This document shows positions 1 through 64,000 of a stretch of DNA of 64,000 bases, in pieces. This stretch comes from Chloroflexota bacterium. GTDB lineage: Bacteria > Chloroflexota > Anaerolineae > Anaerolineales > UBA11579. The notes beneath the pieces were generated by a model, which was not told the origin of the DNA, did no database searches, and saw only the letters and a list, made by a program, of their open reading frames with translations. The first letter of the stretch is position 1; every line of letters starts with the position of its first letter. Both the position numbers and the translations under genes were made by a program. The stretch is from positions 42,444-106,443 of the forward strand of contig JACPVG010000016.1 of the NCBI GenBank assembly GCA_016191875.1, written 5' to 3'.

Positions 1-234
1 CGACTCTTTGTGCGAAATGCGTTCGGTGTCTGTGCTGTCGCGGTAGATGACGCGCAGGCGGTCGTTGTCTTCAATGATGCGGGCGACCCGCCCCGCCTGG
101 ATGTCGGCGGCTACTTCATTAATTGTGAGCGTCTCCTGCTGGTTGGGCTGCTGTATCTGAACCAGAATCATCGCGATGATGATGACAAACAGCAGAATGT
201 AGAACAGAGACACTCGGCTACGAGGGTTGTTCAC
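1..234 (-). CDS. ftsH: FtsH-like membrane protease, N-terminal 78 aa only (gene runs off window start)
   Basis: Not in ORF track (edge-truncated, GTG start). Minus-strand translation VNNPRSRVSLFYILLFVIIIAMILVQIQQPNQQETLTINEVAADIQAGRVARIIEDNDRLRVIYRD...: one TM helix, then an FtsH-extracellular-like segment. GGAGGA lies 4 nt upstream of GTG (234-232). AAA and protease domains are not visible. Confidence 0.55.
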   Translation of the reverse strand, partial: MNNPRSRVSLFYILLFVIIIAMILVQIQQPNQQETLTINEVAADIQAGRVARIIEDNDRLRVIYRDSTDTERISHKES

Positions 235-260
235 ACGATCCTCCGAAACGAAACTGAGTA

Positions 261-390
261 GCCCACCGAAAGTCTTTTTGCAAGGGCTCCGACCTTCCTG
301 CGTCACTCTCCTCGCAAGATGCCTTGGACTACTTTACTAGTTGGCCGCTGCAACTCTCCGACGGAATTCAAAACTTTTATGGCCAACACC
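261..390 (-). repeat. Copy 1 of a ~130-nt intergenic repeat family (orientation inferred from a G-U pair)
   Basis: Reverse complement aligns colinearly with 7057-7186 (+), with about 5 differences in a ~93-nt core, and with 35399-35530 (+). Lies between the ftsH start and the parA promoter. Confidence 0.8.
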
Positions 391-415
391 TTGGTACCTG
401 ATAGTCGGTCAGAAG

Positions 416-424
416 ATTATACCA
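416..424 (-). promoter_or_regulatory. Candidate extended -10 (TGGTATAAT) reading toward repeat copy 1 and ftsH
   Basis: The + strand reads ATTATACCA, which is TGGTATAAT on the minus strand. No good -35. Would give a ~175-nt ftsH leader containing the repeat. Confidence 0.3.
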
Positions 425-2497: not shown

Positions 2498-3604
2498 CTA
2501 ACCGCGTCGACCCCAGATCAGACCTTCCAGGAAGCGGACGAGGCGGCGCAGCCAGGAGCGGATGCGGGCCAGACGCCGCTGCTGCTGGAAGTTGATCGGC
2601 TTGGCGCTCGGGAACGGGCCGGTCCAGATGACCGTGACCGCGCCCCAGGTAAGGCCGCCCCCAAAGCCCACGAACACGATCTTATCATCTCTTCTCAGAC
2701 GGCCGGCCTCGGCTGCCTCAACTGTTGCGATGGGTATCGAAGCGGTTGAGGTGTTGCCATACTCCTGCAGGTTAACGATGAATTTCTCCATCGGGAGCTT
2801 GAGCCCGCGCGCGGCGGCATCGATTATGCGCAAGTTGGCCTGGTGCGGGATGATGAGGTCGATGTCCTCGAGCTGCAAACCGGCGCGGTCAACCACCTCT
2901 CTGGAGGCGTTGGCCATCACACGGGTGGCGAAGCGGAAGACTTCCCTGCCGTTCATCTGAATATAGTGCAGGCCATCGGCTATCGTTTGCGGCGTCGCGG
3001 GCATGGCGCTGCCGCCGGCCGGGAGGCAGAGCAGGTCTCCGCCGGAGCCATCTGAACGCATCACCGAGGAAATCACCCCGCCGGGCTCGTCGCTGCCCTG
3101 CAACACGAACGCTCCGGCGCCATCCCCGAAGAGGATGCAGGTTGTGCGATCGTTCCAATCTACCAGGCGAGAGAGCGTTTCCGCGCCGATGACGATGGCG
3201 TTACGGATCGCCCCGCCGCGGATGGCTTGGGTGGCCATGTTCATGGCGAAAATGAAGCCCGTGCAGGCCGCCAGCAAGTCAAAGGCGCCAGCGTTGATGG
3301 CGCCGATGCGATCCTGGATGACGGAGGCGGTGGCCGGGAAGATGTGCTGGGGGGAGGAGGTCGAGCAGATGATCAGGTCTACATCCCGAGGATGCAGATT
3401 GGCGACCTTAAGCGCCCTGATGGCGGCTTCAGCGCCGAGCGAGGCCGAGCTCTCTTCAGGAGCAGCGATGTGCCGGCGTTCGATGCCGGTGCGGTCGCGA
3501 ATCCATTCGTCATTGGTATCAACCATCTGAGCGAGGTCGTCATTCGTCAACACCTTTTCGGGGGCGCTCATTCCCCAACCGGTAATGTGGGCGTAGAGGG
3601 TCAT
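2498..3604 (-). CDS. fabH: 3-oxoacyl-ACP synthase III (FabH) with a ~40-aa basic amphipathic C-terminal extension
   Basis: MTLYAHITGWGMSAPEKVLTNDDLAQMVDTNDEWIRDRTGIERRH..., active-site context AACTGF, ...GFGGGLTWGA. Extra tail QQQRRLARIRSWLRRLVRFLEGLIWGRRG. Confidence 0.9.
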   Translation of the reverse strand: MTLYAHITGWGMSAPEKVLTNDDLAQMVDTNDEWIRDRTGIERRHIAAPEESSASLGAEAAIRALKVANLHPRDVDLIICSTSSPQHIFPATASVIQDRIGAINAGAFDLLAACTGFIFAMNMATQAIRGGAIRNAIVIGAETLSRLVDWNDRTTCILFGDGAGAFVLQGSDEPGGVISSVMRSDGSGGDLLCLPAGGSAMPATPQTIADGLHYIQMNGREVFRFATRVMANASREVVDRAGLQLEDIDLIIPHQANLRIIDAAARGLKLPMEKFIVNLQEYGNTSTASIPIATVEAAEAGRLRRDDKIVFVGFGGGLTWGAVTVIWTGPFPSAKPINFQQQRRLARIRSWLRRLVRFLEGLIWGRRG

Positions 3605-4857
3605 GCCTGGGCCTCGGCCGGCCGGGCCAAAATGATGGTGGCGTTGTGGCCGCCAAAGCCAAAGGAATTGGACATGGCATACGTCAGTTCCGCGGAGCGG
3701 GCCTGGTTGGGAACATAATCCAGGTCGCAGGCGGGATCAGGAGTTTCGTAGTTAATGGTTGGCGGGATGGTCTGTGCCGCGAGGGCTTTGACACACACCA
3801 GGGCTTCCATGGCGCCGGATGCGCCCAGCATGTGGCCGGTCATGGATTTGGTGGACGACACGGGGATGGCGTAGGCGCCTTCGCCGAACACGGTCTTGAT
3901 GGCGGCGGTCTCGTTCTTATCGTTCAGTTGCGTGCTGGTGCCATGGGCGTTGATGTAATCGATGGCGTCCGGCTGGAGATTGGCATCGTCCAGGGCCATT
4001 TGCATGCAGGCGACCGCGCCGGCGCCATTCTCGGCAGGAGCGGTGATGTGATAGGCATCGTTGGTGCTGCCGTAGCCGGCGACTTCGGCATAGATCCGTG
4101 CGCCGCGTGCCTGGGCGTGCTCCAATGACTCCAGCAACATTATGGCGCCGCCTTCGCCCATGAGAAAGCCATCGCGGGTCAGGTCGAACGGGCGGCTGGC
4201 GCGGGCGGGGTCGTCGTTACGGGTGGATAGTGCGGTCATGGAGGCCATGCCCGCCATGGCGATTGGGATGACGGAGGCTTCGGCGCCGCCCGCGAACATC
4301 ACGTCGGCCTGGCCGCGGCGAATCACTTCGGCGGCTTCGCCCAGCGCGTTGGTGCCGGTGGCGCAGGCCGTCACTACGGCAAGGTTGGATGCGCGGATAC
4401 CGAGGTGTATGGCGAGCATGCCGCCGGCGGTATCCGGCAGCATCATCGGGATGAGAAATGGACTGACGCGGGTGGGGCCCTGGGTCAGCATGACTTCGAT
4501 CTGTTCCGAGATGGTCCCCAGCCCGCCGATGCCAGAGCCGATGACGGCGCCGATGCGGTGGCGGTTGCCGTCGTCAATGGTCAGGCCGCTGTCGGAGAGG
4601 GCTTCGAGGGCAGCGGCCATGGCGAACTGCGTAAAGCGGTCCATGCGCCGGGCTTCTTTACGCCCAAACATGGAGTCCGGGTCCCAGCCCTTGACCTCGG
4701 CGGCGATACGGCACTTGTGTTCAGATGCATCGAACAATGTAACCGGCCCGCCCCCCGGCGTCCCGGCAACCAGATTGCTCCAGGTGGATTCAAGGGTATT
4801 TCCGACCGGGCTGACACAGCCCAGGCCGGTAATCACGATACGCTTACGGTCTTCCAT
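3601..4857 (-). CDS. fabF: 3-oxoacyl-ACP synthase II (FabF)
   Basis: RIVITGLGCVSPVGN..., VVTACATGTNALGEA, INAHGTSTQLND, SNSFGFGGHNATI. 4-nt overlap with fabH. GGAGG SD. Confidence 0.93.
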   Translation of the reverse strand: MEDRKRIVITGLGCVSPVGNTLESTWSNLVAGTPGGGPVTLFDASEHKCRIAAEVKGWDPDSMFGRKEARRMDRFTQFAMAAALEALSDSGLTIDDGNRHRIGAVIGSGIGGLGTISEQIEVMLTQGPTRVSPFLIPMMLPDTAGGMLAIHLGIRASNLAVVTACATGTNALGEAAEVIRRGQADVMFAGGAEASVIPIAMAGMASMTALSTRNDDPARASRPFDLTRDGFLMGEGGAIMLLESLEHAQARGARIYAEVAGYGSTNDAYHITAPAENGAGAVACMQMALDDANLQPDAIDYINAHGTSTQLNDKNETAAIKTVFGEGAYAIPVSSTKSMTGHMLGASGAMEALVCVKALAAQTIPPTINYETPDPACDLDYVPNQARSAELTYAMSNSFGFGGHNATIILARPAEAQA

Positions 4858-7037: not shown

Positions 7038-7046
7038 ATTATACCA
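7038..7046 (-). promoter_or_regulatory. Candidate extended -10 (TGGTATAAT) for efp
   Basis: Minus strand reads GCTGGTATAATTCGCC about 37 nt upstream of the efp ATG. GAGG SD downstream. Confidence 0.4.
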
Positions 7047-7056
7047 GCGGGCTAAG

Positions 7057-7186
7057 TAGTCGGACGTAAGAGTTTTGAATTCAGTCGGAGTGGGGCAGCG
7101 ACCAACTAGTAAAGTAGTCCATGGGCATCTTGCGAGGAGAGTGACGCAGGAAGGTCGGAGTCCTTGCAAAAAGACTTTCAGTGGGC
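7057..7186 (+). repeat. Copy 2 of the ~130-nt intergenic repeat family
   Basis: GTAGTCGGACGTAAGAGTTTTGAATTCAGTCGGAG...CATCTTGCGAGGAGAGTGACGCAGGAAGGTCGGAGTCCTTGCAAAAAGACTTTCAGTGGGC. Abuts the stop codon of the HD-GYP gene. Confidence 0.8.
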
Positions 7187-7189
7187 CAC

Positions 7190-8545
7190 TTAGAAGATCG
7201 TGAGGAACGCCTCGACGAGCTTGGGGTCAAAGTGGGCTCCAGCCTGCGAGCGAATGTATTCCTTGGCGTTCTCAATCGGCCAGGCGTGGCTGTAGGGGCG
7301 GTCGGAGATCAGGGCATCCCAGACATCCACGATGGCAAAAATGCGCGCGGGCAGGGGAATCTCTTCGCCTTTCAGTCCGCGCGGGTAGCCGCTGCCATCC
7401 CACTTTTCATGGTGGCAGTAGGGGATATCGAGGGCGGGCCGCAGGTAGGTGATCGGCGAAAGCATTTCGTAGGCATAGAGCGGATGCTGGCGCATGATAT
7501 GCCACTCTTCTTCGGTCAATTCGCCGCGCTTCTGCAGGATGCTGTCCGGGATGCCCATCTTGCCGATATCGTGAAGCAATGCGCCGCGGTGAATGTTGAT
7601 GAGATCACTCCCGTTTATGCCGAGCGCGTGGGCCATTTTCAGCGTCAGGTCCAGGACGCGCCTGGAGTGCCCGTCGGTTTCCTTGTCGCGGAGTTCCAGG
7701 GCATGGGACCAGCCTTCCAGGGTGGCATCGTAGGCCAGCGCCAGTTCGCGCTCCTTTTGGACGCGTTCAGTGATCTCGCGGGAATTGATGGCCACCTGAA
7801 ACTCGTCCGTGCGGTCAAGCAGCGGTTTGAAGTGGCTTTCAAAAACATGCCAGGAGGAATCCTGGTGGCGAATGCGCAGTTCCGTAGATGTAAAGAAATC
7901 AGCGGATGTGCGGCAATGCTCAAGAATCTGTTCCGCCAATGCGCTATCATCCGGATGGAGAATTTCCATGAACTTGCGGCTAAGCAAGTTCTCGGGCAGA
8001 TACCCCAGGACGCGTTGGTGGGAGGGGCTGGAATAGGTGATGCGGCCCTCCAAGTCAACGAGAGCGATCAGGTCGCTGGCGTTCTCAATCAGTGAACGAA
8101 AGTGCTCTTCACTGCGCCGGAGGGCGATCTCGGCGCGTTTGCGCTCGATGGCATAGCGAATCGAGCGAACCACCAATTGATGGTCGGCGCGGCCCTTGAC
8201 CAGATAGTCCTGGGCGCCGCCGCGCACGGCTTCGATGGCGATCAGCTCGTCATCCGTGCCGGAGAGGACGACGATCGGCACGCCGCCACCGCGGGCGTGC
8301 AGTGAATAGAAGGTGGATAGGCCCTGGCTTTCAGGAAGACTGAGATCAAGCAAGACCACATCGAACTTCTCGTTGCGGACCTTCTGGAGGGCCTCTTTGA
8401 GGCGGTGAACCTGGACGACCTCAAAGCGCTGTACGCTGCCGCGTTCCAAGAACATGCGGATGAGGTTAGAGTGATCCTCATTGTCCTCGACCAGGAGGAC
8501 GCGCAGGACTTCATCGGTGAGAAACCGAAGGTGGCCTTCCGTCAT
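7190..8545 (-). CDS. Response regulator REC-PAS-HD-GYP (probable c-di-GMP phosphodiesterase)
   Basis: REC (VLLVEDNEDH...VVLLDLSLPESQG), a PAS-like middle, and an HD-GYP domain (HDIGKMGIP...HHEKWDGSGYPRGL). Confidence 0.9.
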   Translation of the reverse strand: MTEGHLRFLTDEVLRVLLVEDNEDHSNLIRMFLERGSVQRFEVVQVHRLKEALQKVRNEKFDVVLLDLSLPESQGLSTFYSLHARGGGVPIVVLSGTDDELIAIEAVRGGAQDYLVKGRADHQLVVRSIRYAIERKRAEIALRRSEEHFRSLIENASDLIALVDLEGRITYSSPSHQRVLGYLPENLLSRKFMEILHPDDSALAEQILEHCRTSADFFTSTELRIRHQDSSWHVFESHFKPLLDRTDEFQVAINSREITERVQKERELALAYDATLEGWSHALELRDKETDGHSRRVLDLTLKMAHALGINGSDLINIHRGALLHDIGKMGIPDSILQKRGELTEEEWHIMRQHPLYAYEMLSPITYLRPALDIPYCHHEKWDGSGYPRGLKGEEIPLPARIFAIVDVWDALISDRPYSHAWPIENAKEYIRSQAGAHFDPKLVEAFLTIF

Positions 8546-25828: not shown

Positions 25829-25850
25829 GAAAAAATTACCAGCGGTTGCA

Positions 25851-26043
25851 GGGGAGAGCACCAGCCTGAAAAGGCTGGTCACCGAAGGGGCAAACCCATC
25901 CGCATGGCCGGATGGGTGAAACTCTCAGGTAAATGGACCCTGCCGCCGCCACTCTCTGGAAAGTCTCCGATGACTTTGTCGGAGACACCGACGGGGCAAG
26001 GACGGCCTGTGCCGTTCGAATCTCTCAGGTTCTCGACAGAGGG
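25851..26043 (+). promoter_or_regulatory. Tandem glycine riboswitch (two aptamers)
   Basis: Aptamer 1: GGGGAGAG...CACCGAAGGGGCAA...CTCTCAGGTAAATGGACC. Aptamer 2: CTCTGGAAAG...ACACCGACGGGGCAA...CTCTCAGGTTCTCGACAGAG. Directly upstream of gcvH. Confidence 0.9.
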
Positions 26044-26071: not shown

Positions 26072-26108
26072 CGTTATTTCCGAACTACGGCAGACCTGGA
26101 GGTTGTTG

Positions 26109-26501
26109 ATGAATATCCCCAAAGACCTGAAGTACACCCCGAACGACGAGTGGCTGCGGGTGGAAGGCAAGAAAGGCACGATTGGCATCACCGACTATGC
26201 TCAGGACCAACTCTCCGATATCGTGTTCATCGAATACACCGTTTCCCCCGGCGATGAGATCAAGAAAGGGACCGCGTTCGGGACGGTGGAATCGGTGAAG
26301 GCGGCGTCGGATATCTATTTGCCGGTAAGTGGGAAAGTGCTGGCCATCAATGAAGGGTTGCAGAACGCGCCCGAAACTGTAAACAGCGACCCGTACGGCA
26401 AGGCCTGGATGATCGAGATTGAACTCACGGAAGCGGGTGAGTTAGAGGGCCTGCTGGATGCTGCCGGATATGAGCAGCATTGCAAAGAAAGGGACGCCTG
26501 A
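26109..26501 (+). CDS. gcvH: Glycine cleavage system H protein
   Basis: YTPNDEWLRVEGKKGTIGITDYAQ...VESVKAASDIYLPVSG (lipoyl-Lys motif). ATG at 26109 lies 7 nt after GGAGG. Confidence 0.93.
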   Translation: MNIPKDLKYTPNDEWLRVEGKKGTIGITDYAQDQLSDIVFIEYTVSPGDEIKKGTAFGTVESVKAASDIYLPVSGKVLAINEGLQNAPETVNSDPYGKAWMIEIELTEAGELEGLLDAAGYEQHCKERDA

Positions 26502-27844
26502 TGTTCCATCCACATACCGAGAACGATCGGCAGGAGATGCTCAAGGCGATCGGTGTTGGGTCGCTTGAAGATCTCTTTTCCGGTATTCCTGAGAAACATC
26601 GTTTTCCCAGGCTCGACCTGCCAGAGCCGCTGACTGAAATGGAAGCGCTGGCCGAATTGCAGTCGATCGCGTCCGAAAATGACACAGCTCAGGACCTACC
26701 CTGTTTTCTGGGGGCGGGCGCCTATCATCACTATATCCCGGCCGTGGTCGATTCGATACTCAGGCGGGGAGAGTTCTACACGGCCTATACGCCCTATCAG
26801 CCCGAAATTTCCCAAGGCACGCTCCAGGTAATATTCGAATACCAGAGCCACATTGTGAACCTTACCGGCATGGATGTGTCGAATGCCTCGCATTACGATG
26901 GGGCAACGGCTGCGGCGGAGGCGATCAACATGGCGCAAGCCATCCAGCGCGGGAAGCGTAACAAGGCAGTGATCTCTCCGGCGGTGCATCCACACTACCG
27001 CGCCACCATCGATACTTACATCAAGAGCGCGGATTTCGAGATCGTTGGCGGAGACTTGGCGCCTACATCTGGACCGGAAGCGCTGATACCGCTCATCGAC
27101 CAGGATACCGCCGTGGTTATGGTGCAGTACCCGGATTTCTTCGGCCGCCTGTATGACTATGCCACGTTGAGTCGCGCGACGCATGAACTCGGTGCGTTGC
27201 TTGCCGTGGTGGTCAACCCGATAGCCCTGGCGATACTCAAGCCGCCAGCGGATTTCGGGGCAGACATCGTGTGCGGGGAGGGTCAGTCGCTGGGGCTGCC
27301 GCTCTCATTCGGCGGACCCTACCTGGGAATCCTTGCCACCAAGAACGAATACGTCCGAACCATCGCCGGACGGCTGGTGGGGGAAACGACCGACAGCGAT
27401 GGCAAGCGCGGATACGTGCTAACCCTGAGCACACGCGAACAGCACATCCGCCGCGAAAAGGCGGGCTCGAACATCTGCACCAATCAGGGTCTGATGGCAC
27501 TGGCGGCTACCGTTTACATCAGTCTGGTCGGGAAAGAGGGACTGCGCGAGGTGGCCGACCTGTGTTACCAAAAGGCGCATTACGCCGCCGGCGAGATCTC
27601 AAAGCTTAAGGGGTTCGCCTTGTGGCATGATGGCGAATTTTTCCACGAGTTTGTGGTGGCTTGCCCGCGTCCGGCCGAGGAAATCAACGCGCATCTCCTG
27701 GCCAACGGAATTCTTGGTGGGTACGCGGTCGGCAACGATTACCCAGAGATGGAGAATGCTGTCATGTTCGCAGTGACCGAGATGAATTCGCGTGAAGAGA
27801 TCGACTACCTGGTGAGCGTGTTGGCGGAGGTTGGCGATGACTGA
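26501..27844 (+). CDS. gcvPA: Glycine dehydrogenase (decarboxylating) subunit 1
   Basis: MFHPHTENDRQEMLKAIGV...FLGAGAYHHYIPAVV... TGATG overlap with the gcvH stop. Confidence 0.95.
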   Translation: MFHPHTENDRQEMLKAIGVGSLEDLFSGIPEKHRFPRLDLPEPLTEMEALAELQSIASENDTAQDLPCFLGAGAYHHYIPAVVDSILRRGEFYTAYTPYQPEISQGTLQVIFEYQSHIVNLTGMDVSNASHYDGATAAAEAINMAQAIQRGKRNKAVISPAVHPHYRATIDTYIKSADFEIVGGDLAPTSGPEALIPLIDQDTAVVMVQYPDFFGRLYDYATLSRATHELGALLAVVVNPIALAILKPPADFGADIVCGEGQSLGLPLSFGGPYLGILATKNEYVRTIAGRLVGETTDSDGKRGYVLTLSTREQHIRREKAGSNICTNQGLMALAATVYISLVGKEGLREVADLCYQKAHYAAGEISKLKGFALWHDGEFFHEFVVACPRPAEEINAHLLANGILGGYAVGNDYPEMENAVMFAVTEMNSREEIDYLVSVLAEVGDD

Positions 27845-29306
27845 AGCGGTGATTTATGACAAATCCGTCCCGGAGCGGCGCGGAGTGCGTTTTCCCGCAT
27901 CCGACGTCCCCAAGGCAAGTCTGCCGGCCAAGTTTAGGCGCAAAGGACTGACTCTTCCCGAAGTGGGCGAGCTGGAGGTGGCGCGCCACTTTACCCGCCT
28001 TTCTCAACTTAATCACAGCATCACCATCGGATTTTATCCGCTGGGTTCCTGCACCATGAAGTACAACCCGGTCATCAATGAAGAGACCGCCCGCCTGCCT
28101 GGCTTTGCCGCTATCCACCCACTACAGCCGGCTGAGACCGTGCAGGGCGCGCTGGCGTTGATGTATTTCCTGCAGCAGTTCCTGGCGGAGATCGGCGGTT
28201 TTGCGGGAGTGACGCTGCAACCCGCGGCCGGCGCACAGGGAGAGCTCACCGGGGTGATGATCATCCGCAAATATCACTATAAGAACGGGCAGGGGCAGCG
28301 CACCAAGATTCTTGTACCTGATTCGGCGCATGGCACCAACCCGGCCACCTCGGCGATGACGAACTACCAGGTGGTGGAGATCGCTTCAGACGAGCGCGGC
28401 AACATCGACCTGGAGGCGCTCAAGAAAGAACTGGATGACAGCGTGGCCGGGTTGATGCTGACCAACCCGAACACCCTCGGCCTGTTCGAGGAGCACGTGG
28501 AGGAAGTCATCCGCGCTGTTCACAGCGTGGGCGGGCTGGTCTACGGCGACGGAGCCAATATGAACGCCCTGCTCGGTGTGGCCCGCCCCGGAGACCTGGG
28601 CTTTGACATCCTGCATTACAACCTGCACAAGACCTTTACGACGCCGCACGGCGGGGGCGGGCCGGGCTGTGGCCCGGTTGCGGTCGCGGCCCACCTGGCG
28701 GATTACCTGCCTGGCCCGGTGGTTGAGGTCATTGAAGAAGGAAACGGGGAACAGCCGCCGGTCTTCGGGTTCATCACACCCAAGCACAGCATTGGCCGGG
28801 TGAAGGCATTTCACGGCCACTTTGGGATGATGGTGCGGGCGTTCACCTATATCCTGATGCACGGCGATCGTGGCCTGAGGGAAGTTGCCCAGCACGCGGT
28901 GCTCAACGCCAACTACCTGATGCACCAACTGAAAGACGTGTTCTCGCTGCCTTATGACCGAACGTGCATGCACGAGTTCGTGCTTGAAGGCCGCTGGGCG
29001 GACGCGCCGGATGTGCATGCGCTGGACGTGTCCAAGCGCCTGATGGACTTCGGTTTCCATCCGCCGACGAATTATTTCCCCCTGATCGTGCGCGAAGCGC
29101 TGATGATCGAGCCGACGGAAACGGAGACCAAGGAAACCCTGGATGCTTTTGCGGCGGCGATGCGTCAGATCGCCGATGAAGCGCACAACGACCCGGACGT
29201 GCTGCACGCCGCGCCGCACGTCACGCCCATAAAGCGGCTGGACGAAGTAAGCGCAGCCCGCAACCTGGTGTTGTGCTGCATGCCGCCCGGCAGGGAACCG
29301 GCCTGA
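27837..29306 (+). CDS. gcvPB: Glycine dehydrogenase (decarboxylating) subunit 2
   Basis: ...LGSCTMKYNP...NLHKTFTTPHGGGGPG (PLP Lys). GGAGG lies 6 nt before the ATG at 27837. Overlaps the gcvPA end. Confidence 0.95.
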   Translation: MTEAVIYDKSVPERRGVRFPASDVPKASLPAKFRRKGLTLPEVGELEVARHFTRLSQLNHSITIGFYPLGSCTMKYNPVINEETARLPGFAAIHPLQPAETVQGALALMYFLQQFLAEIGGFAGVTLQPAAGAQGELTGVMIIRKYHYKNGQGQRTKILVPDSAHGTNPATSAMTNYQVVEIASDERGNIDLEALKKELDDSVAGLMLTNPNTLGLFEEHVEEVIRAVHSVGGLVYGDGANMNALLGVARPGDLGFDILHYNLHKTFTTPHGGGGPGCGPVAVAAHLADYLPGPVVEVIEEGNGEQPPVFGFITPKHSIGRVKAFHGHFGMMVRAFTYILMHGDRGLREVAQHAVLNANYLMHQLKDVFSLPYDRTCMHEFVLEGRWADAPDVHALDVSKRLMDFGFHPPTNYFPLIVREALMIEPTETETKETLDAFAAAMRQIADEAHNDPDVLHAAPHVTPIKRLDEVSAARNLVLCCMPPGREPA

Positions 29307-31709: not shown

Positions 31710-34700
31710 TCACGCCTTGGGGAAGCGACTGATCACGATAGCCGGGGTAGGGATGGTCGCGCGGTCGCCAGGTTTCAATTCAGCCGGAGTTTTGCCGGGC
31801 TTATCAGAGGCGCTCTGGAAAACCAGCCATGGCGTATCCTTTTTGGTAAATTCCGATTCGACGAAAGCCTGACCGGTGAGGAAGCCGTCGGAATCGATGG
31901 CGCAGGAAGTTACCTTGCCGATGACCTTGCCGCGCTTATCGAGCACGGGATCGCCCAAGTGCGCCATGCGGACGCCTTTTTCCATGAACCGGAAACGAGC
32001 CACCCGCCCTTTGCGGGCGGCTTCTCGGGCGAGGAAGGCATCCCTGCCTACGAACCAGGGCTTGTAGGTCTTCACGTACGTGCCGAAGGCCGCCTCGCCA
32101 ACCCCCAGGTTGAGTTCACCGCCCATTTCGTGCCCGTAGAGCGGCAGGCCGGCCTCGGTTCGCAGCGAATCGCGCGCGCCCAGGCCGCAGGGCTTCAGGC
32201 CGAGCGGCGCGCCGGCTTCAAGCAGCCGATCCCAGAGTTCAGGCGCTATACCGGGGTGGATGAAAAGCTCGAAAGCCATCGATTCGCCCGTGTAGCCGGT
32301 GCGGGAAACCACCAGGTCAAAGCCGCCAACCACGGCCTCGCACAACTCGGTGCGCTTGAGCCCCGCGATGCGGGCGCGGGTTTCTTCGTCAACGCCGAGG
32401 GATAACAGAATCTCGCGGGACTTCGGACCCTGGAGGGCGATATCCACGCGCATGTCATCGCCTTCCTTCGGGTCGCGCAGGTTGCGCAGGCGGACGTTGC
32501 GACCGAAGGCCCGGCTGGCAGAGCGTTTGCGGTCCACGAGGAGTTCCCCACTGCGGATGCCCTGAAGCCAGGCCCAGTCCTTATCGTCGTTGGAGGCGTT
32601 GACCACCACAAGGTAACGGTCTTCCCCACGCCGATAAACGAGCAGGTCGTCAATCACGTTAGCGTCGGGATCAAGGAAGTGGGTGTATAGTGATTCTCCC
32701 ACTTTCAGCGCGGATATGTCGTTGCCACAGACCGAATCGAGGAAGGTGGCCGCGTCGGAGCCTTCGGCCTGATACACCCCCATGTGGGAGACATCGAACA
32801 GGCCGGCGGCCTGCCGTACAGCCAGATGTTCCTCGACCACCGACGAATACCAGACGGGCATATCCCAGCCGGCAAACGGGACCATTTTAGCCCCAAGGGC
32901 CTTATGGGCAGCATGCAGGCTGGTCACCCGTAGTTCAGTCGGTTCGGTTTCGGTCCAGGTAAAGTCGGGCAAGGGGTTTGCGGTGGAGGAGCCGGCGCCG
33001 ATGAAATATGGCTTGGTATCGCCCTTCTCCGGTTTGCCCTTGGCGGCGTCAGCGGGCTGTTCAGATTCCTTGATCGATATGGGGCCGGGCAGTTTGCGCA
33101 GAAGGTCGTCATCGATCTTCACATAGCCATCCGAAAGGTCGCGCAGCCAGGTCGCCACGCGGCCAAAGTCTTTGGCTGGCAGGCTCAATCTAAACGAGTC
33201 TGTGCCTGCTTTGGCGATCACGACGCTTGCCGGACCATCCGGGTGATTGAGGGTAGCCGGTCGTGGAGAGCCGGCTTTCTTGTCTTCCAGGTCGGCAGAG
33301 AGTATGAAGTTCATGAACTGGTCGGCGCGCGGCCCATGGATGTCGAGGGCAACATGGTCTGAATCACTGGCGGGACGGTCATCGGCGTAGAAAAAATGGG
33401 GGTACGAGGAGGTGGGTGGAGTGAAGTCGATCCCGGCCGTAAGGGCCAGGTTGCGGGTACGCAGGCGGGCATCCTGAAGAACTGCGAAGTCGACCTTGGC
33501 GCGCTGGTTCAGTTTGCGAGTCGACTCCTGGCGAAAAGGTGTGCAGGCCTGCAGAAGGTCGGCGATGACATCGGCCAGGACGGCGGTCTCTTTTTCGCCG
33601 AAGCCACGCTGGGTGATCCAGGGCGTGCCCATGCGGATGCCGGAAGGGTTGAGCGCCGAGCGGTCACCGGGGATGGTGTTGCGGTTGACCACGATGCCGG
33701 CCAGGTCGAGGATGCGGGCGGCCATATCGCCGGTGAGGGGTGTGCCATCCGGGCCCTGCACCGAGCGAACATCCAAGTTCATCAGGTGGCTGCCAGTCCC
33801 TCCGAAGGGTATGCGGAAACCGCGCTCCTGGAAGCGCTGGGTAAAGGCGGCGCAATTCTTCACAATCTGTTCCTGGAGGCTCCGGAATTCGGGCGTGCGA
33901 GCGAGTTTGAAGGTAATAGCCAGGGCGGCGAAGACGTTGACGTGCGGGCCACCTTGTTCGCCGGGGAACACAGCCCGGTCGATCTTCCTGGAGAGTTCCC
34001 TGTTTGTGGTCAGGATTATGGCGCCGCGCGGCCCGCAGAGCGTCTTGTGGGTGGTGGAGGTGATGACGTGGGCGTGCCCGACCGGCGAAGGATAGACGCC
34101 GGCGGCCACCAACCCGGCCACATGGGCCATATCGGCCAACAGGTAGGCGCCCACCGAGTCGGCGATGGCGCGCAGGGCGGCCCAATCTGCGGGCCAGGGA
34201 TACGAAGAGAACCCGCCGATAATCATCTTGGGCTTGTGTTGATGGGCCAGGGCGGCAACCGCCTCGTAGTCGATGCGCTCGGTTTGCGGGTCGACGGTGT
34301 AGTGCACGATGTTGTAGTATTTACCAGAGCGGTTGACCGGCGAGCCGTGTGAAAGATGGCCGCCGTGCAGCAAATCCATGCCCATCACGGTATCGCCGGG
34401 GTTGACCAGGGCATGGTAGACGGCGTTGTTGGCTGGCGCGCCGGAGAGCGCCTGGACGTTTACATAGAGATCGTCGGCGCTTACCCCGTTGGCGGCGAAC
34501 GTTTCGGCACAGCGGCGGCGGGCGAGCGCTTCGACGATATCGGCGTACTCGACGCCTTTGTAGTAACGCGGGTCGGAGTATCGGCGGTAATGGCCGAGGC
34601 GGGCGTCGTAATCCAGCAGTTGTTCTTCGGTCATCCAGCGTGTGGCCTCATCGGGATAGCCTTCGGCGTAGATGTTGTGAAAGGGAGTGCTCAACGCTTC

Positions 34701-34838
34701 GCGTACGGCAGCAGGCGAACTGCTCTCGCTGGGGATGAGAATCAGCCGGCGAACCTGGCGCTCGGCTTCGTATTGGGACAGTTCAAAAACAGCCGGATCA
34801 AGATCCTGCATTGAACCGCGAAAAAGGAAATCATCCAT
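31710..34838 (-). CDS. glyA/gcvT: Fusion: serine hydroxymethyltransferase (N) + partial GcvT-like linker domain + aminomethyltransferase GcvT (C), 1042 aa
   Basis: SHMT motifs LIPSESSSP, HVITSTTHKTLCGPRGA (PLP Lys). C-terminal GcvT motifs MVPFAGWDMPVWY, FDVSHMGV, SRTGYTGE, GLGARDSLRTEAGLPLYGHE. Start set to the ATG at 34838 (GAGGAG SD); the track starts at 34901. Confidence 0.9.
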   Translation of the reverse strand: MDDFLFRGSMQDLDPAVFELSQYEAERQVRRLILIPSESSSPAAVREALSTPFHNIYAEGYPDEATRWMTEEQLLDYDARLGHYRRYSDPRYYKGVEYADIVEALARRRCAETFAANGVSADDLYVNVQALSGAPANNAVYHALVNPGDTVMGMDLLHGGHLSHGSPVNRSGKYYNIVHYTVDPQTERIDYEAVAALAHQHKPKMIIGGFSSYPWPADWAALRAIADSVGAYLLADMAHVAGLVAAGVYPSPVGHAHVITSTTHKTLCGPRGAIILTTNRELSRKIDRAVFPGEQGGPHVNVFAALAITFKLARTPEFRSLQEQIVKNCAAFTQRFQERGFRIPFGGTGSHLMNLDVRSVQGPDGTPLTGDMAARILDLAGIVVNRNTIPGDRSALNPSGIRMGTPWITQRGFGEKETAVLADVIADLLQACTPFRQESTRKLNQRAKVDFAVLQDARLRTRNLALTAGIDFTPPTSSYPHFFYADDRPASDSDHVALDIHGPRADQFMNFILSADLEDKKAGSPRPATLNHPDGPASVVIAKAGTDSFRLSLPAKDFGRVATWLRDLSDGYVKIDDDLLRKLPGPISIKESEQPADAAKGKPEKGDTKPYFIGAGSSTANPLPDFTWTETEPTELRVTSLHAAHKALGAKMVPFAGWDMPVWYSSVVEEHLAVRQAAGLFDVSHMGVYQAEGSDAATFLDSVCGNDISALKVGESLYTHFLDPDANVIDDLLVYRRGEDRYLVVVNASNDDKDWAWLQGIRSGELLVDRKRSASRAFGRNVRLRNLRDPKEGDDMRVDIALQGPKSREILLSLGVDEETRARIAGLKRTELCEAVVGGFDLVVSRTGYTGESMAFELFIHPGIAPELWDRLLEAGAPLGLKPCGLGARDSLRTEAGLPLYGHEMGGELNLGVGEAAFGTYVKTYKPWFVGRDAFLAREAARKGRVARFRFMEKGVRMAHLGDPVLDKRGKVIGKVTSCAIDSDGFLTGQAFVESEFTKKDTPWLVFQSASDKPGKTPAELKPGDRATIPTPAIVISRFPKA

Positions 34839-35233
34839 TGGTGGCGCTCCTCGAGAGTATTCGGTGGGATGAATTGTAGTCTTTCGGATGGGCGGGGTCA
34901 AGTTTGCAGACTGGCGGGCAAATAAATAGCGCCGGAGCAGCGTGTCCGCCAGCGAAGAGATTTTCGACTAGTTGGCCTCTAGTCCAAAGTGGGCTGGCCT
35001 ACTTCTCTTCCGGCCGTCGCTTCATCCTCTCGGATGATCTGGCAGATTGCCAGTGGTCAAATTATCCCGCAAGCCTGTCCTGCTTTATTAGTTCGACGGC
35101 CGTCTGAGTATTTGCTTACTCCGGCGTTATTTACTTGTGAATTCAGTATACGGCGGGGGACGGCGGGTATTAGGTGACAGATGTCCCGCTTATGGGGGGA
35201 CAGGTTTCCTGCCTGGCGCATGGGCCGGTAATC

Positions 35234-35260: not shown

Positions 35261-35272
35261 GGAAAAAGGAAG

Positions 35273-35346
35273 TGGGCGGGATAGGACTCGAACCTACGAC
35301 TTCTTCCTTGTAAGGGAAGCGCTCTAACCAGCTGAGCTACCCGCCC
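35273..35346 (-). tRNA. tRNA-Val (anticodon TAC)
   Basis: Minus strand GGGCGGGTAGCTCAGCTGGTTAGAGCGCTTCCCTTACAAGGAAGAAGTCGTAGGTTCGAGTCCTATCCCGCCCA. Anticodon loop CTTACAA. 74 nt. Confidence 0.9.
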
Positions 35347-35398
35347 GTGACGCGGATTATAACGCAGTTGGGCACGACCACCCGTTGGAATGGCTGTT

Positions 35399-35530
35399 AG
35401 GTAGTTGGCCATAAGAGCTTTGAATTCTGTCGAAGAGGAACGGCGGCCAACTATTAAGCTGGCCATAAGCATCTTACGTGAGTGTCGCGCTGGAAGGTCG
35501 GAGTGCTTTGCAAAAAGACTTTCGGTGAGG
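35399..35530 (+). repeat. Copy 3 (most diverged) of the ~130-nt intergenic repeat family
   Basis: AGGTAGTTGGCCATAAGAGCTTTGAATTCTGTCG...GGCCAACTATT...CATCTTACGTGAG...GGAAGGTCGGAGTGCTTTGCAAAAAGACTTTCGGTGAGG. Colinear with copy 2. Confidence 0.75.
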
Positions 35531-35620
35531 TACTGGGCACCCGGAAGGTGGCGTGTACGGGATGCCGAGATGTCCCGGCAAAGGAGTATTCGAAGGGTTG
35601 CAAGTCCGCCTGTACATCGT

Positions 35621-35649
35621 TTGCGCGCCCCCTGCAACTATGCTATATT
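35621..35649 (+). promoter_or_regulatory. Candidate promoter TTGCGC-N17-(TGc)TATATT for the rpiR-like gene (candidate leaderless mRNA)
   Basis: The -10 ends at 35649. The ATG at 35656 follows after 6 nt with no SD. Confidence 0.4.
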
Positions 35650-35655
35650 CAACAC

Positions 35656-36492
35656 ATGCCCTATGAGGACCTGATTCGGGAGAATCGGCCAGCCATGTCA
35701 AAGAGCTTTGCCAAGCTGGCCGATTTTCTTCTGGATTCCTATGTTCAGGCAGCGCTGATGACGGCGACGGAGATCGCCCATCGGGTGGATATCGACGCGG
35801 CCACGGTGGTGCGCTTTGCCCAGCGGCTGGGGTATTCGGGTTTTCCCGAACTGCAGGCCGAGATCAAGGCGCGCGTCCTGCACGACCTGATGTTCCGGAC
35901 GGAGGCGGGCGGCCATCCCGAATCTGCGGCGGACATCGCCATTGCAACGCTGGAACGGCTCCAGGGAGCGATCGAGCAGGCGAAGTTTCTACTGGATGGC
36001 AAGACCATCAACCAGATGGTGGAGCGAATTGGAGAAGCCCGGCGAATCATCATCCTGCATGAGGGGATGGGCCAGGCGGCCGCCTACAACCTGATGAACC
36101 TGCTGGAACAAGGGGGGTTTATTGTGACTAACGTTCAGGCGGCGGTCAATGACCTGGCGCGGGCGGTCTCGACGGCCAGTAAGGACGATCTGATCCTGGC
36201 CATCGACGTGACCGGGGACGCGCCGTTCATCTCGCGAGCGCTGACCGAAGCTAACGGCGCTGGGATCCAGACAGCTGCCATCGTGGGCGCGGCCTCGCAC
36301 TCCAGCGCCCTTGCGGCAAAGATGATCCTTGCCGCCCAAAGCCAGCCTTCGCTGGGAATGAGTCTGGTGGTGGTGGATACGCTGGTGTTCGCTCTGGCAG
36401 AAGCCTTGCACTGGCGGTTCAAGGAGCGGTTCGCGGGGGCCGACGAAGCGTTGGAAGCGCTGTTCGAGCGTATTCAAATTGGCGACCGGTAG
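35656..36492 (+). CDS. RpiR/MurR-family transcriptional regulator (HTH_6 + SIS)
   Basis: MSKSFAKLADFLLDSYVQAALMTATEIAHRVDIDAATVVRFAQRLGYSGFPELQ, then a SIS domain. Start trimmed from 35482, which overlaps repeat copy 3. Confidence 0.85.
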   Translation: MPYEDLIRENRPAMSKSFAKLADFLLDSYVQAALMTATEIAHRVDIDAATVVRFAQRLGYSGFPELQAEIKARVLHDLMFRTEAGGHPESAADIAIATLERLQGAIEQAKFLLDGKTINQMVERIGEARRIIILHEGMGQAAAYNLMNLLEQGGFIVTNVQAAVNDLARAVSTASKDDLILAIDVTGDAPFISRALTEANGAGIQTAAIVGAASHSSALAAKMILAAQSQPSLGMSLVVVDTLVFALAEALHWRFKERFAGADEALEALFERIQIGDR

Positions 36493-62529: not shown

Positions 62530-64000
62530 TCAGAACTCGCTCAATCTGAAAGCGCCGTCTAAGAGCAACCCTCGGATGGTCTCGATCTCGGGCCCCCAGA
62601 GACTATCCGGACCGCGATAGGGCACTGCCTGCCGCAGGCGGCCCAGGGCGGATTGTACGCCGCGTCCGGGTATGGCTTCGGGCTGCTCGCGCGAGCGGGT
62701 TTCGAGGGCGCGCGCCGCGCAAATAAGTTCAACGGCCAGGACATGGGCGCAGTTCTGGGCCACCTGGTAAGCCGTTCGTGCGGCAGTCATGGCGTTGGCG
62801 TTGTGGTCTTCCTTCCCAGCAGAAGTCGGAAGGGATTGGACTGAGTTCGGAAAGGCCAGCGCCTGGTTTTCCAGCACCAGCGCGGCGGCGGTGTATTGAG
62901 GCATCATCATGCCGCTGTTCAACCCGGCGTCATGCAGACTGTCCACGAGCATGGGCGGGAGGCCGGCGTTTGTCTTTGGATCTGTCAGATGGTAGATGCG
63001 TCTTTCGGAAATAGCAGCCAGCTCTGCCAGGGCGAGCTTTGCGTAATCCATCACCATGCCGACCGGTTCGCCATGGAAATTGCCGCCTGAGATGGCTTCG
63101 CTCTCACTAAACAGAATTGGATTATCGGTAACGGCATTAATCTCGTTTTCGATGACCTCGCGGGCATGTGCAATCGCATGCCGGGCAGCGCCCTGAACTT
63201 GCGGCGCGCAACGCAGTGAATAATTGTCCTGGACCCGACCGGCCTGGTCCAGCAAGGCGCTGCCTTGAGTCAGCCGCCGAACGCGCTCGGCGACTCGGAT
63301 CTGGCCGGCATGCTTCCGAAGCTCATGCAGGCGAGCGTCGAAAGCGGCTGAGGTCCCGAACAGCCCCTCAAGGGTCATGCTCAACGCTACGTCCGCGGTG
63401 TCAAGCAAGGTGTCGGCCAATGCCAGTGTCAGCCCTGCCAGGGCGGCCGAAAACGTCGCCCCGTTGGTAAGCGCCAGGCCTTCTTTGGCCTCCAGGATGA
63501 CGCGCCCTATCCCGGCTGCCTGCATGGCGGCGCTGCCGGTGAGCCGTTGTCCCTTCCAGACGGCCCAACCTGAGTCGGCTTCCGGGTTTTCGCTGTCTGC
63601 GGAAAGGACCAGGGCAACGTGCGCCAAGGGAGCGAGGTCGCCCGACGAGCCCAGCGATCCCTGCGCGGGGACTTCAGGGGTAACGCCGCGATTGAGCATT
63701 TCCAGGAGCGTAGCGAGCGTTTCAAGGCGGATACCGGAGTGGCCGCTGGCAAGGGTGTTGGCGCGGATGAGCATGGCAGCGCGCACCACTTCGGGGGGCA
63801 GGGCTGGCCCGGTTCCAACGGCATGGCTGAGAATCAGGTTGCGATTCAACTTGCGAATCTGATCAGGGGTAATGGTCTGGCTGGCAAAAATACCAAAGCC
63901 AGTATTGATTCCGTAGACCGTCTTGCCGGCTGAGACGATGCTGGCGACCCAGGCCTCGGAGTGCGCGACCTCGCGGGCGGCGGCGGGAGCGAGACTGATC
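62530..64000 (-). CDS. hutH: Histidine ammonia-lyase (aromatic amino-acid lyase family), N-terminus beyond window end
   Basis: ...VYGINTGFG...NLILSHAVG...GSLGSSGDLAPLAH (MIO region)...NANAM. The reading frame stays open from 63849 to the window edge. Confidence 0.9.
   Translation of the reverse strand, partial: ISLAPAAAREVAHSEAWVASIVSAGKTVYGINTGFGIFASQTITPDQIRKLNRNLILSHAVGTGPALPPEVVRAAMLIRANTLASGHSGIRLETLATLLEMLNRGVTPEVPAQGSLGSSGDLAPLAHVALVLSADSENPEADSGWAVWKGQRLTGSAAMQAAGIGRVILEAKEGLALTNGATFSAALAGLTLALADTLLDTADVALSMTLEGLFGTSAAFDARLHELRKHAGQIRVAERVRRLTQGSALLDQAGRVQDNYSLRCAPQVQGAARHAIAHAREVIENEINAVTDNPILFSESEAISGGNFHGEPVGMVMDYAKLALAELAAISERRIYHLTDPKTNAGLPPMLVDSLHDAGLNSGMMMPQYTAAALVLENQALAFPNSVQSLPTSAGKEDHNANAMTAARTAYQVAQNCAHVLAVELICAARALETRSREQPEAIPGRGVQSALGRLRQAVPYRGPDSLWGPEIETIRGLLLDGAFRLSEF

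Follow-up and report, generated by a model that had tools for sequence, protein, structure and literature searches.

The window, by which we mean the whole 64,000-nt (64-kb) stretch of DNA that was analyzed, carries three copies of a short repeat, all of them surrounded by housekeeping genes. Copy 1 lies inside the 5' leader of ftsH in the sense orientation, and parA diverges from the same spacer. Copy 2 lies between the stop codon of a response-regulator gene of the HD-GYP type and the -10 box of efp, antisense to both genes. Copy 3 is found between tRNA-Val and a MurR/RpiR-family gene (rpiR), that is, between divergent promoters. The original prediction had placed all copies in intergenic DNA, and this was borne out; copy 2 directly adjoins the stop codon upstream of it and gives one base to that codon, as T7190, the last base of the copy, is the third base of the TAA stop of the HD-GYP gene. 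The coordinates of these features are listed in Table 1.

Table 1. Features of the window, with positions counted from its first letter
Feature	Position	Strand	Length	Remarks
Copy 1	257-391	-	135 nt	Found with blastn and nhmmer
Copy 2	7055-7190	+	136 nt	End positions from the empty site in relatives
Copy 3	35400-35534	+	135 nt	Most diverged copy; MAFFT, blastn
TA, left duplication of copy 2	7053-7054	+
TA, right duplication of copy 2	7191-7192	+		With T7190 makes the stop codon on the - strand
CA at the 5' end of copy 1	392-393	-		Putative 2-bp target-site duplication
CA at the 3' end of copy 1	255-256	-		Second half of the putative duplication
ftsH -10 box, TGGTATAAT	416-424	-		Extended -10
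ftsH start codon, GTG	232-234	-		RBS and start lie 3' of copy 1
Response-regulator/PAS/HD-GYP gene	7190-8545	-		Copy 2 ends in its stop codon
efp -10 box	7038-7046	-		Copy 2 begins 8 nt away
tRNA-Val	35272-35346	-		-10 box at ~35354-35363
rpiR-family gene	-10 box 35641-35649; ATG 35656			Leaderless
SHMT/GCV_T fusion gene	31710-34901	-	1063 aa
Glycine riboswitch aptamer	25841-25950	+		Rfam RF00504, 59 bits

These placements give the three copies three differing transcript contexts. Copy 1 is probably transcribed together with the rest of the ftsH leader. Copy 3 falls outside the rpiR transcript, since the -10 box of rpiR is situated 7 nt before the ATG and the mRNA would be leaderless. The promoters at 549-585, 35641-35658, 416-424 and 7038-7046 all resemble extended -10 boxes (TGnTATAAT). 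Both parA and rpiR have a box that ends 7 nt ahead of the ATG, so their mRNAs seem to be leaderless. The start of the NCBI rpiR model (265 aa) lies 13 codons downstream of that in most homologues found, which have 276-278 aa.

The three copies aligned colinearly with MAFFT in the orientations that the original prediction had given them, and blastn and nhmmer agreed. Copies 1 and 2 matched each other by blastn at 88.9% over 135 nt (E 1e-45), copies 1 and 3 at 78.8% (E 1e-25) and copies 2 and 3 at 78.0% (E 7e-23). The corresponding global identities were 0.88, 0.79 and 0.77. When a profile was built from the three copies, nhmmer found each of them with E values from 1e-41 to 1e-46. The element ends of all three copies were refined by means of the empty site in relatives that is described below. 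The conserved blocks quoted in the original prediction are all present, and the blocks TTTGAATTC, GGAAGGTCGGAG and TTGCAAAAAGACTTTC are invariant across the copies. A 16-nt invariant run at ~22% divergence is not significant by itself (p ~0.4, an estimate). The GC content of the element is 50-51%, compared with 59.5% for the window, so it is AT-richer than the genome.

Neither the three-copy profile nor blastn detected a fourth copy in the window, and no further copy was found in the 8.4 kb past its end. A 65-kb Logan contig continues without a break from window position ~47,950. The copy number looks low and the copies clustered, as all three lie within 35 kb and the other 28 kb of the window has none. 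Matches near 31.6-31.8 kb were considered as a possible fourth copy and rejected, as they fall in the part of an FKBP gene that codes for the C-terminus and in a neighboring ORF. In agreement with the original prediction, no ORF is shared by the copies, since their reading frames are shifted by indels and their stop codons differ. A small conserved peptide was also rejected on account of these frame shifts, and the open frames on the antisense strand differ from copy to copy. The same prediction saw no transposase, and the Pfam scan of 30 ORFs of the window likewise returned none, RAYT and TnpA included.

To find relatives of the element, two conserved cores were used as DNA patterns to scan sequence collections. 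The GTDB species genomes gave 11 matches, all of which were chance matches when every locus was screened by blastn (nhmmer E >= 0.004). The two Chloroflexota matches that were inspected both lay within coding sequence. Two pattern scans of the JGI metagenomes and a scan of IMG/VR gave 0 matches, as did blastn against plasmids and phages. With no true match in these collections, the element is taken to be confined to one lineage.

The sites of the copies were compared with syntenic loci in relatives, which were retrieved through orthologues of EF-P, ParA and RpiR. For the efp site, the interval that separates the HD-GYP stop codon from the -10 box of efp is 6 nt in L018, 5 nt in L023 (GCA_004297445.1) and 30 nt in L028. 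In the window it is 143 nt, which equals 5 + 136 + 2. The empty efp site was found in three lineages, one made up of L018, L017 and L019, whose EF-P is 83% identical, and the others being L023 and L028. A similar picture was obtained for the ftsH leader. The -10 box and the GTG are 44 nt apart in L023, 44 nt in L013 and 45 nt in L020, compared with 181 nt in the window, which equals 44 + 135 + 2. The spacer between tRNA-Val and the rpiR ATG is 309 nt in the window and ~88 nt and ~100 nt in L025 and L026, respectively. This third site is thus shorter in relatives, yet it is not a clean empty site, as ~125 further window-specific nucleotides flank copy 3. These nucleotides (window 35347-35399 and 35535-35625) have no counterpart in the L025 and L026 spacers and are not repeated elsewhere in the window. 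They may be a second, unrelated insertion or the result of rapid spacer turnover.

The junctions of copy 2 could be read to the base. The window has GGGC[TA]AGTAG...CCACT[TA]GAAGA, where the empty site of L018 has GTGGT[TA]GAAGA. Written in another way, the window junctions are TTC[TA]AGTGGCCC...GACTACT[TA]GCCCGCTGGTATAAT, and L018 has TTCTAACCACGCTGGTATAAT. Copy 2 is a 136-nt insertion with TA duplicated, and the reconstructed target is CTAG. The terminal T of the element, together with TA, rebuilds the TAA stop codon of the HD-GYP gene. The ends of similarity between the copies coincide with the ends of the insertion. When the flanks of copy 1 were read in the register fixed by the empty site of copy 2, CA was found on both sides, a 2-nt match with a chance probability of ~1/16. 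Copy 3 has TA on the left (35398-35399) and GG on the right, so its duplication is not intact. The original prediction had seen no target-site duplication, and this part of it has to be revised in light of TA/TA at copy 2 and CA/CA at copy 1 in the same register. Its other statement about the ends, which denied any convincing terminal inverted repeats, was upheld. Only AGTAG/CTACT is common to both ends, with 12-13 of 30 positions matching without gaps, and the end-to-end local alignment was no better than that of shuffled sequences (158-494 of 500 shuffles were as good).

An alternative explanation of the empty sites is that the repeat is ancestral intergenic sequence that was lost in relatives, with the copies kept alike by gene conversion. 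This explanation would need base-precise loss to have happened repeatedly in independent lineages, each time restoring the 44-nt and 5-nt spacers. The observation that could be brought forward for it comes from L013, whose EF-P is 80% identical to that of the window. Between its HD-GYP stop codon and efp -10 box, L013 has ~104 nt (L013 9827-9940) compared with 5-30 nt in the others. The reverse complement of this stretch aligns with the 5' half of the element in the same orientation, with a Smith-Waterman score of 38 compared with 21 +/- 4 for shuffles (0/200 as good), and nhmmer gave a marginal E value of ~0.1. It is a possible decayed half-copy. However, the match is partly ordinary spacer that is also present in L028, which is free of the element, and the junction in L013 is offset by 17 nt from that in the window. 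The L013 stretch may descend from an old copy that has since decayed or from a separate insertion, and the similarity could mean that the history of the element is older than a simple recent insertion. Taken together, we regard ancestral sequence with loss in relatives as highly improbable.

The age of the copies can also be judged from their similarity. Identity between copies 1 and 2 is 88%, even though the orthologous spacers of the nearest relatives cannot be aligned outside the promoter boxes. The copies are, therefore, much younger than the species splits. In addition, an independent Logan contig of the same organism (L012, from SRR12113421) ends inside copy 2, and the break is at the start of a 36-nt stretch that is identical in copies 1 and 2. 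Such a contig end is typical of a repeat-induced break in a k-mer assembly.

Two readings of the repeat had been offered by the original prediction. The first of these was a small structured RNA or cis-leader family, in which the copies would be transcribed and would act through a conserved fold. The repeat was also said not to be a known RNA family, which is correct as far as Rfam 15 goes. A search found nothing at the copies, either over the whole window at the gathering score or over the copy 2 region at E <= 10, and the only Rfam 15 matches in the window overall were three tRNAs and one glycine riboswitch. The position of copy 1, in the sense orientation within the ftsH 5' leader and downstream of a strong extended -10 box, would suit a leader. 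However, the contexts differ, with copy 1 in a 5' UTR, copy 2 antisense and upstream of the efp promoter, and copy 3 between divergent promoters. A consensus scan found no sigma-70 promoter and no intrinsic terminator in the copies or at their ends. One candidate promoter, TTGCAA-N17-TACTCA, was rejected, as it has a poor -10 box and, in copy 2, points into the 3' end of the convergent gene.

Folding and covariation were then weighed against this reading. In the sense orientation, the MFE was not clearly better than that of dinucleotide shuffles, with z values of -0.6 for copy 1 and -0.4 for copy 2. Copy 3 folded somewhat better than its shuffles (z -2.2). The antisense z values ranged from -0.2 to -0.8. 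RNAalifold predicted 43 pairs for the three copies in the sense orientation; 0 of these were compensatory, and one or more copies broke 16 of them. On the antisense strand, 0 of 26 pairs were compensatory. The test is weak with three sequences only. The covariation term in the sense orientation was +3.35, which is a penalty. The internal complementarity that the original prediction had described is present. Of the two stems, that between TAGTTGGCC and GGCCAACTA has a perfect 9 bp in copy 3 and 7 bp in copy 1. In copy 2 it is degraded by two mismatches, and the 5' stem of this copy has three uncompensated substitutions. The other stem, GAAGGTC/GACTTTC, includes one G-U pair that makes it strand-specific, and it is invariant in all three copies and, thus, uninformative about structure. 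The predicted fold of the element consists of two separate modest hairpins, and the long stable stem-loop that is typical of many MITEs was not predicted. A structured RNA or cis-leader finds no Rfam match, no clear folding excess, no covariation and no consistent context here, and the orthologous sites in relatives are without the element, so that all lines of evidence agree. We consider this reading very unlikely.

The second reading, a non-autonomous MITE/REP-like element, agrees with the empty sites, the 2-bp duplications at copies 1 and 2, the AT-rich and non-coding sequence and the contig end within copy 2. In our judgment, the repeat is likely to be a low-copy, lineage-specific, non-coding and non-autonomous MITE-like mobile DNA in an uncultured, Anaerolineae-like member of the Chloroflexota. 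Several observations count against a MITE, namely, the weak terminal inverted repeats, CA rather than TA at copy 1, no intact duplication and no clean empty site at copy 3, the seemingly low copy number, the lack of a long hairpin and the lack of a transposase among the 30 ORFs.

Compared with the syntenic relatives, each copy is an insertion. As a MITE-like element, the repeat would have entered the intergenic DNA of a single lineage three times, all within 35 kb. Its movement would have depended on a transposase acting in trans from another place in the genome, and the most likely candidate is a DDE enzyme of the IS630/Tc1-mariner type that makes 2-bp staggered cuts. Since a TA duplication is the hallmark of IS630/Tc1-mariner and ISY100 sometimes duplicates other dinucleotides, an IS630-type enzyme is our best guess, albeit a tentative one that we would not hold to be probable. 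The 5' end of the element (AGTAGTTGGCCATAAAAG) may resemble Tc1-type ends. Copy 2 landed on the TA of the reconstructed CTAG, which included the stop codon of the neighboring gene, and the terminal T of the element restored TAA. The element may now be mostly a neutral passenger, tolerated where promoters, RBSs and stop codons stay intact.

It is also conceivable that the repeat was moved by an enzyme other than a DDE transposase, such as a Y1 transposase (IS200/IS605, RAYT) that works on hairpins of single-stranded DNA. In that case, the dinucleotides at the flanks would be motifs for targeting or cleavage and not duplications. GTAG/CTAC is present at the element ends and at two internal sites, in the arrangement AGTAGTTGGCC ... 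GGCCAACTAGT AA AGTAGTCCA ... TGGGCTACT, and this recalls the GTAG tag of REPs that is cleaved by RAYTs (PMC3733652). The 5' end of the element pairs with the central site and the second central site pairs with the 3' end, so that two separate hairpin domains result, one in each half, with no end-to-end pairing. The G-T pair in one of the stems renders it strand-specific, as noted above. However, the loops of ~38 and 59 nt are beyond the range of REPs, and the 2-bp repeats at copies 1 and 2 point to staggered DDE cuts and are unexpected for Y1 enzymes. The left flanks of the copies, GGTACCA, GCGGGCTA and GGCTGTTA, have no common tetra- or pentanucleotide target, and the 30 ORFs scanned in the window included no RAYT or TnpA. 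We consider mobilization by such an enzyme unlikely.

A different possibility that builds on the same four sites is that the element is a new type of TIR-poor mobile module of two hairpins, with four alternating GTAG-headed sites, which is moved by an unrecognized transposase and doubles as an RNA part. We think it quite unlikely. If it were true, copy 1, for example, may have been co-opted by the ftsH leader as a regulatory insert of 135 nt, or the element may carry an RNA that is used in trans by its mobilizing enzyme.

Two other kinds of element were tried and rejected. An integron attC site was set aside because neither a cassette array nor an integrase is present and nothing more than the bare 136 nt was inserted; in addition, GTTGGCC/GGCCAAC is what we take to be only a near fit to the attC R'/R'' consensus. 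An IS110-type element with a bridge RNA was set aside because the flanks share no conserved target sequence.

Apart from the repeat, the window contains other features of interest. The ~200-nt non-coding 5' leader of the SHMT/GCV_T fusion gene (~34930-35135, - strand) is strongly conserved in three lineages, the other two being represented by L025 (~3070-3345) and L026 (~4225-4480). It is downstream of a conserved TATACT box and has a long closing stem, CGCCGGAG/CUCCGGCG, with several internal hairpins. Its MFE is -85.1 kcal/mol compared with -58.0 +/- 4.5 for shuffles (z -6.1; 0/200 as good), and 3 of 61 predicted pairs are compensatory. No Rfam family matched it at E <= 1. It may represent a new riboswitch or leader of one-carbon metabolism, and as a candidate new structured RNA it is far stronger than the three-copy repeat. 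As would be expected, the glycine riboswitch precedes the gcvH and gcvP genes (26103-29306). At the other end of the window, an aromatic/histidine ammonia-lyase gene (62530-63849, - strand; 8350-9888 in L029) encodes 512 aa in the Logan contig. The gene runs off the window end, and its start would be at ~64068, so the listed ORF of 439 aa is a truncated reading and not the real gene.

The element is previously undescribed and lineage-restricted, and MITEs as a kind are already known. To our knowledge, few such elements have been described in Chloroflexota. The insertion junctions are documented to the base here, one of them with a stop codon rebuilt by the element. The repeat also accounts for breaks in the short-read assembly of the organism at these points. 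Annotators should be cautioned against calling such repeats sRNAs. Copy 1 could have an effect on ftsH expression. If it does, it would be one more MITE that rewires the leader of a housekeeping gene. The practical value of the finding is modest.

Bacterial MITEs are <200 bp, non-coding and relatively AT-rich, often with TA ends and target duplications, and some have TIRs of just 4-7 bp or none at all (PMC2229807). The repeat resembles the MITEs reviewed by Delihas in 2008 (Correia/NEMIS, ERIC/IRU, RUP, RU-3, CIR and YPAL; PMC2229807), which are 100-200 bp, non-coding and intergenic. Like bacterial MITEs, it has filled and empty sites among related genomes, it has a 5'-TA-3' flank and a 2-bp duplication at copy 2, it is AT-richer than its host and it can sit within a transcribed leader. 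Its 5' and 3' halves fold separately, as in CIR, and like RU-3 and ERIC it has a contiguous TIR of just a few bp. Unlike bacterial MITEs, its TIRs are statistically undetectable and it has no long stable hairpin. It also differs from described MITEs in its apparently low copy number, with three clustered copies, its uncultured Chloroflexota host and a sequence that matches nothing in the collections searched.

Compared with MITEs of IS630/Tc1-mariner elements, such as RUP with IS630-Spn1, copy 2 is similar in being inserted into TA, in having TA duplicated and in its CTAG target. The CA flanks of copy 1, the lack of a duplication at copy 3 and the lack of a cognate IS or transposase among the 30 ORFs are differences. 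The non-TA duplication at copy 1 has a precedent in ISY100 of the IS630 family, which duplicates TA and occasionally other dinucleotides, with AA/TT in 2 of 39 products (PMC2170065). REPs are units of 20-40 bp with stems of 5-13 bp, loops of 2-20 nt and a GTAG tag, and GTAG REPs have been reported in Chloroflexi (PMC3733652). The repeat differs from REPs and REPINs in its 135-bp unit, its longer loops, the 2-bp direct repeats at two copies and the absence of a nearby RAYT among the ORFs scanned. It shares with RAYT-mobilized GTAG REPs and REPINs the GTAG/CTAC ends, the intergenic location and the G-T pairs in stems.
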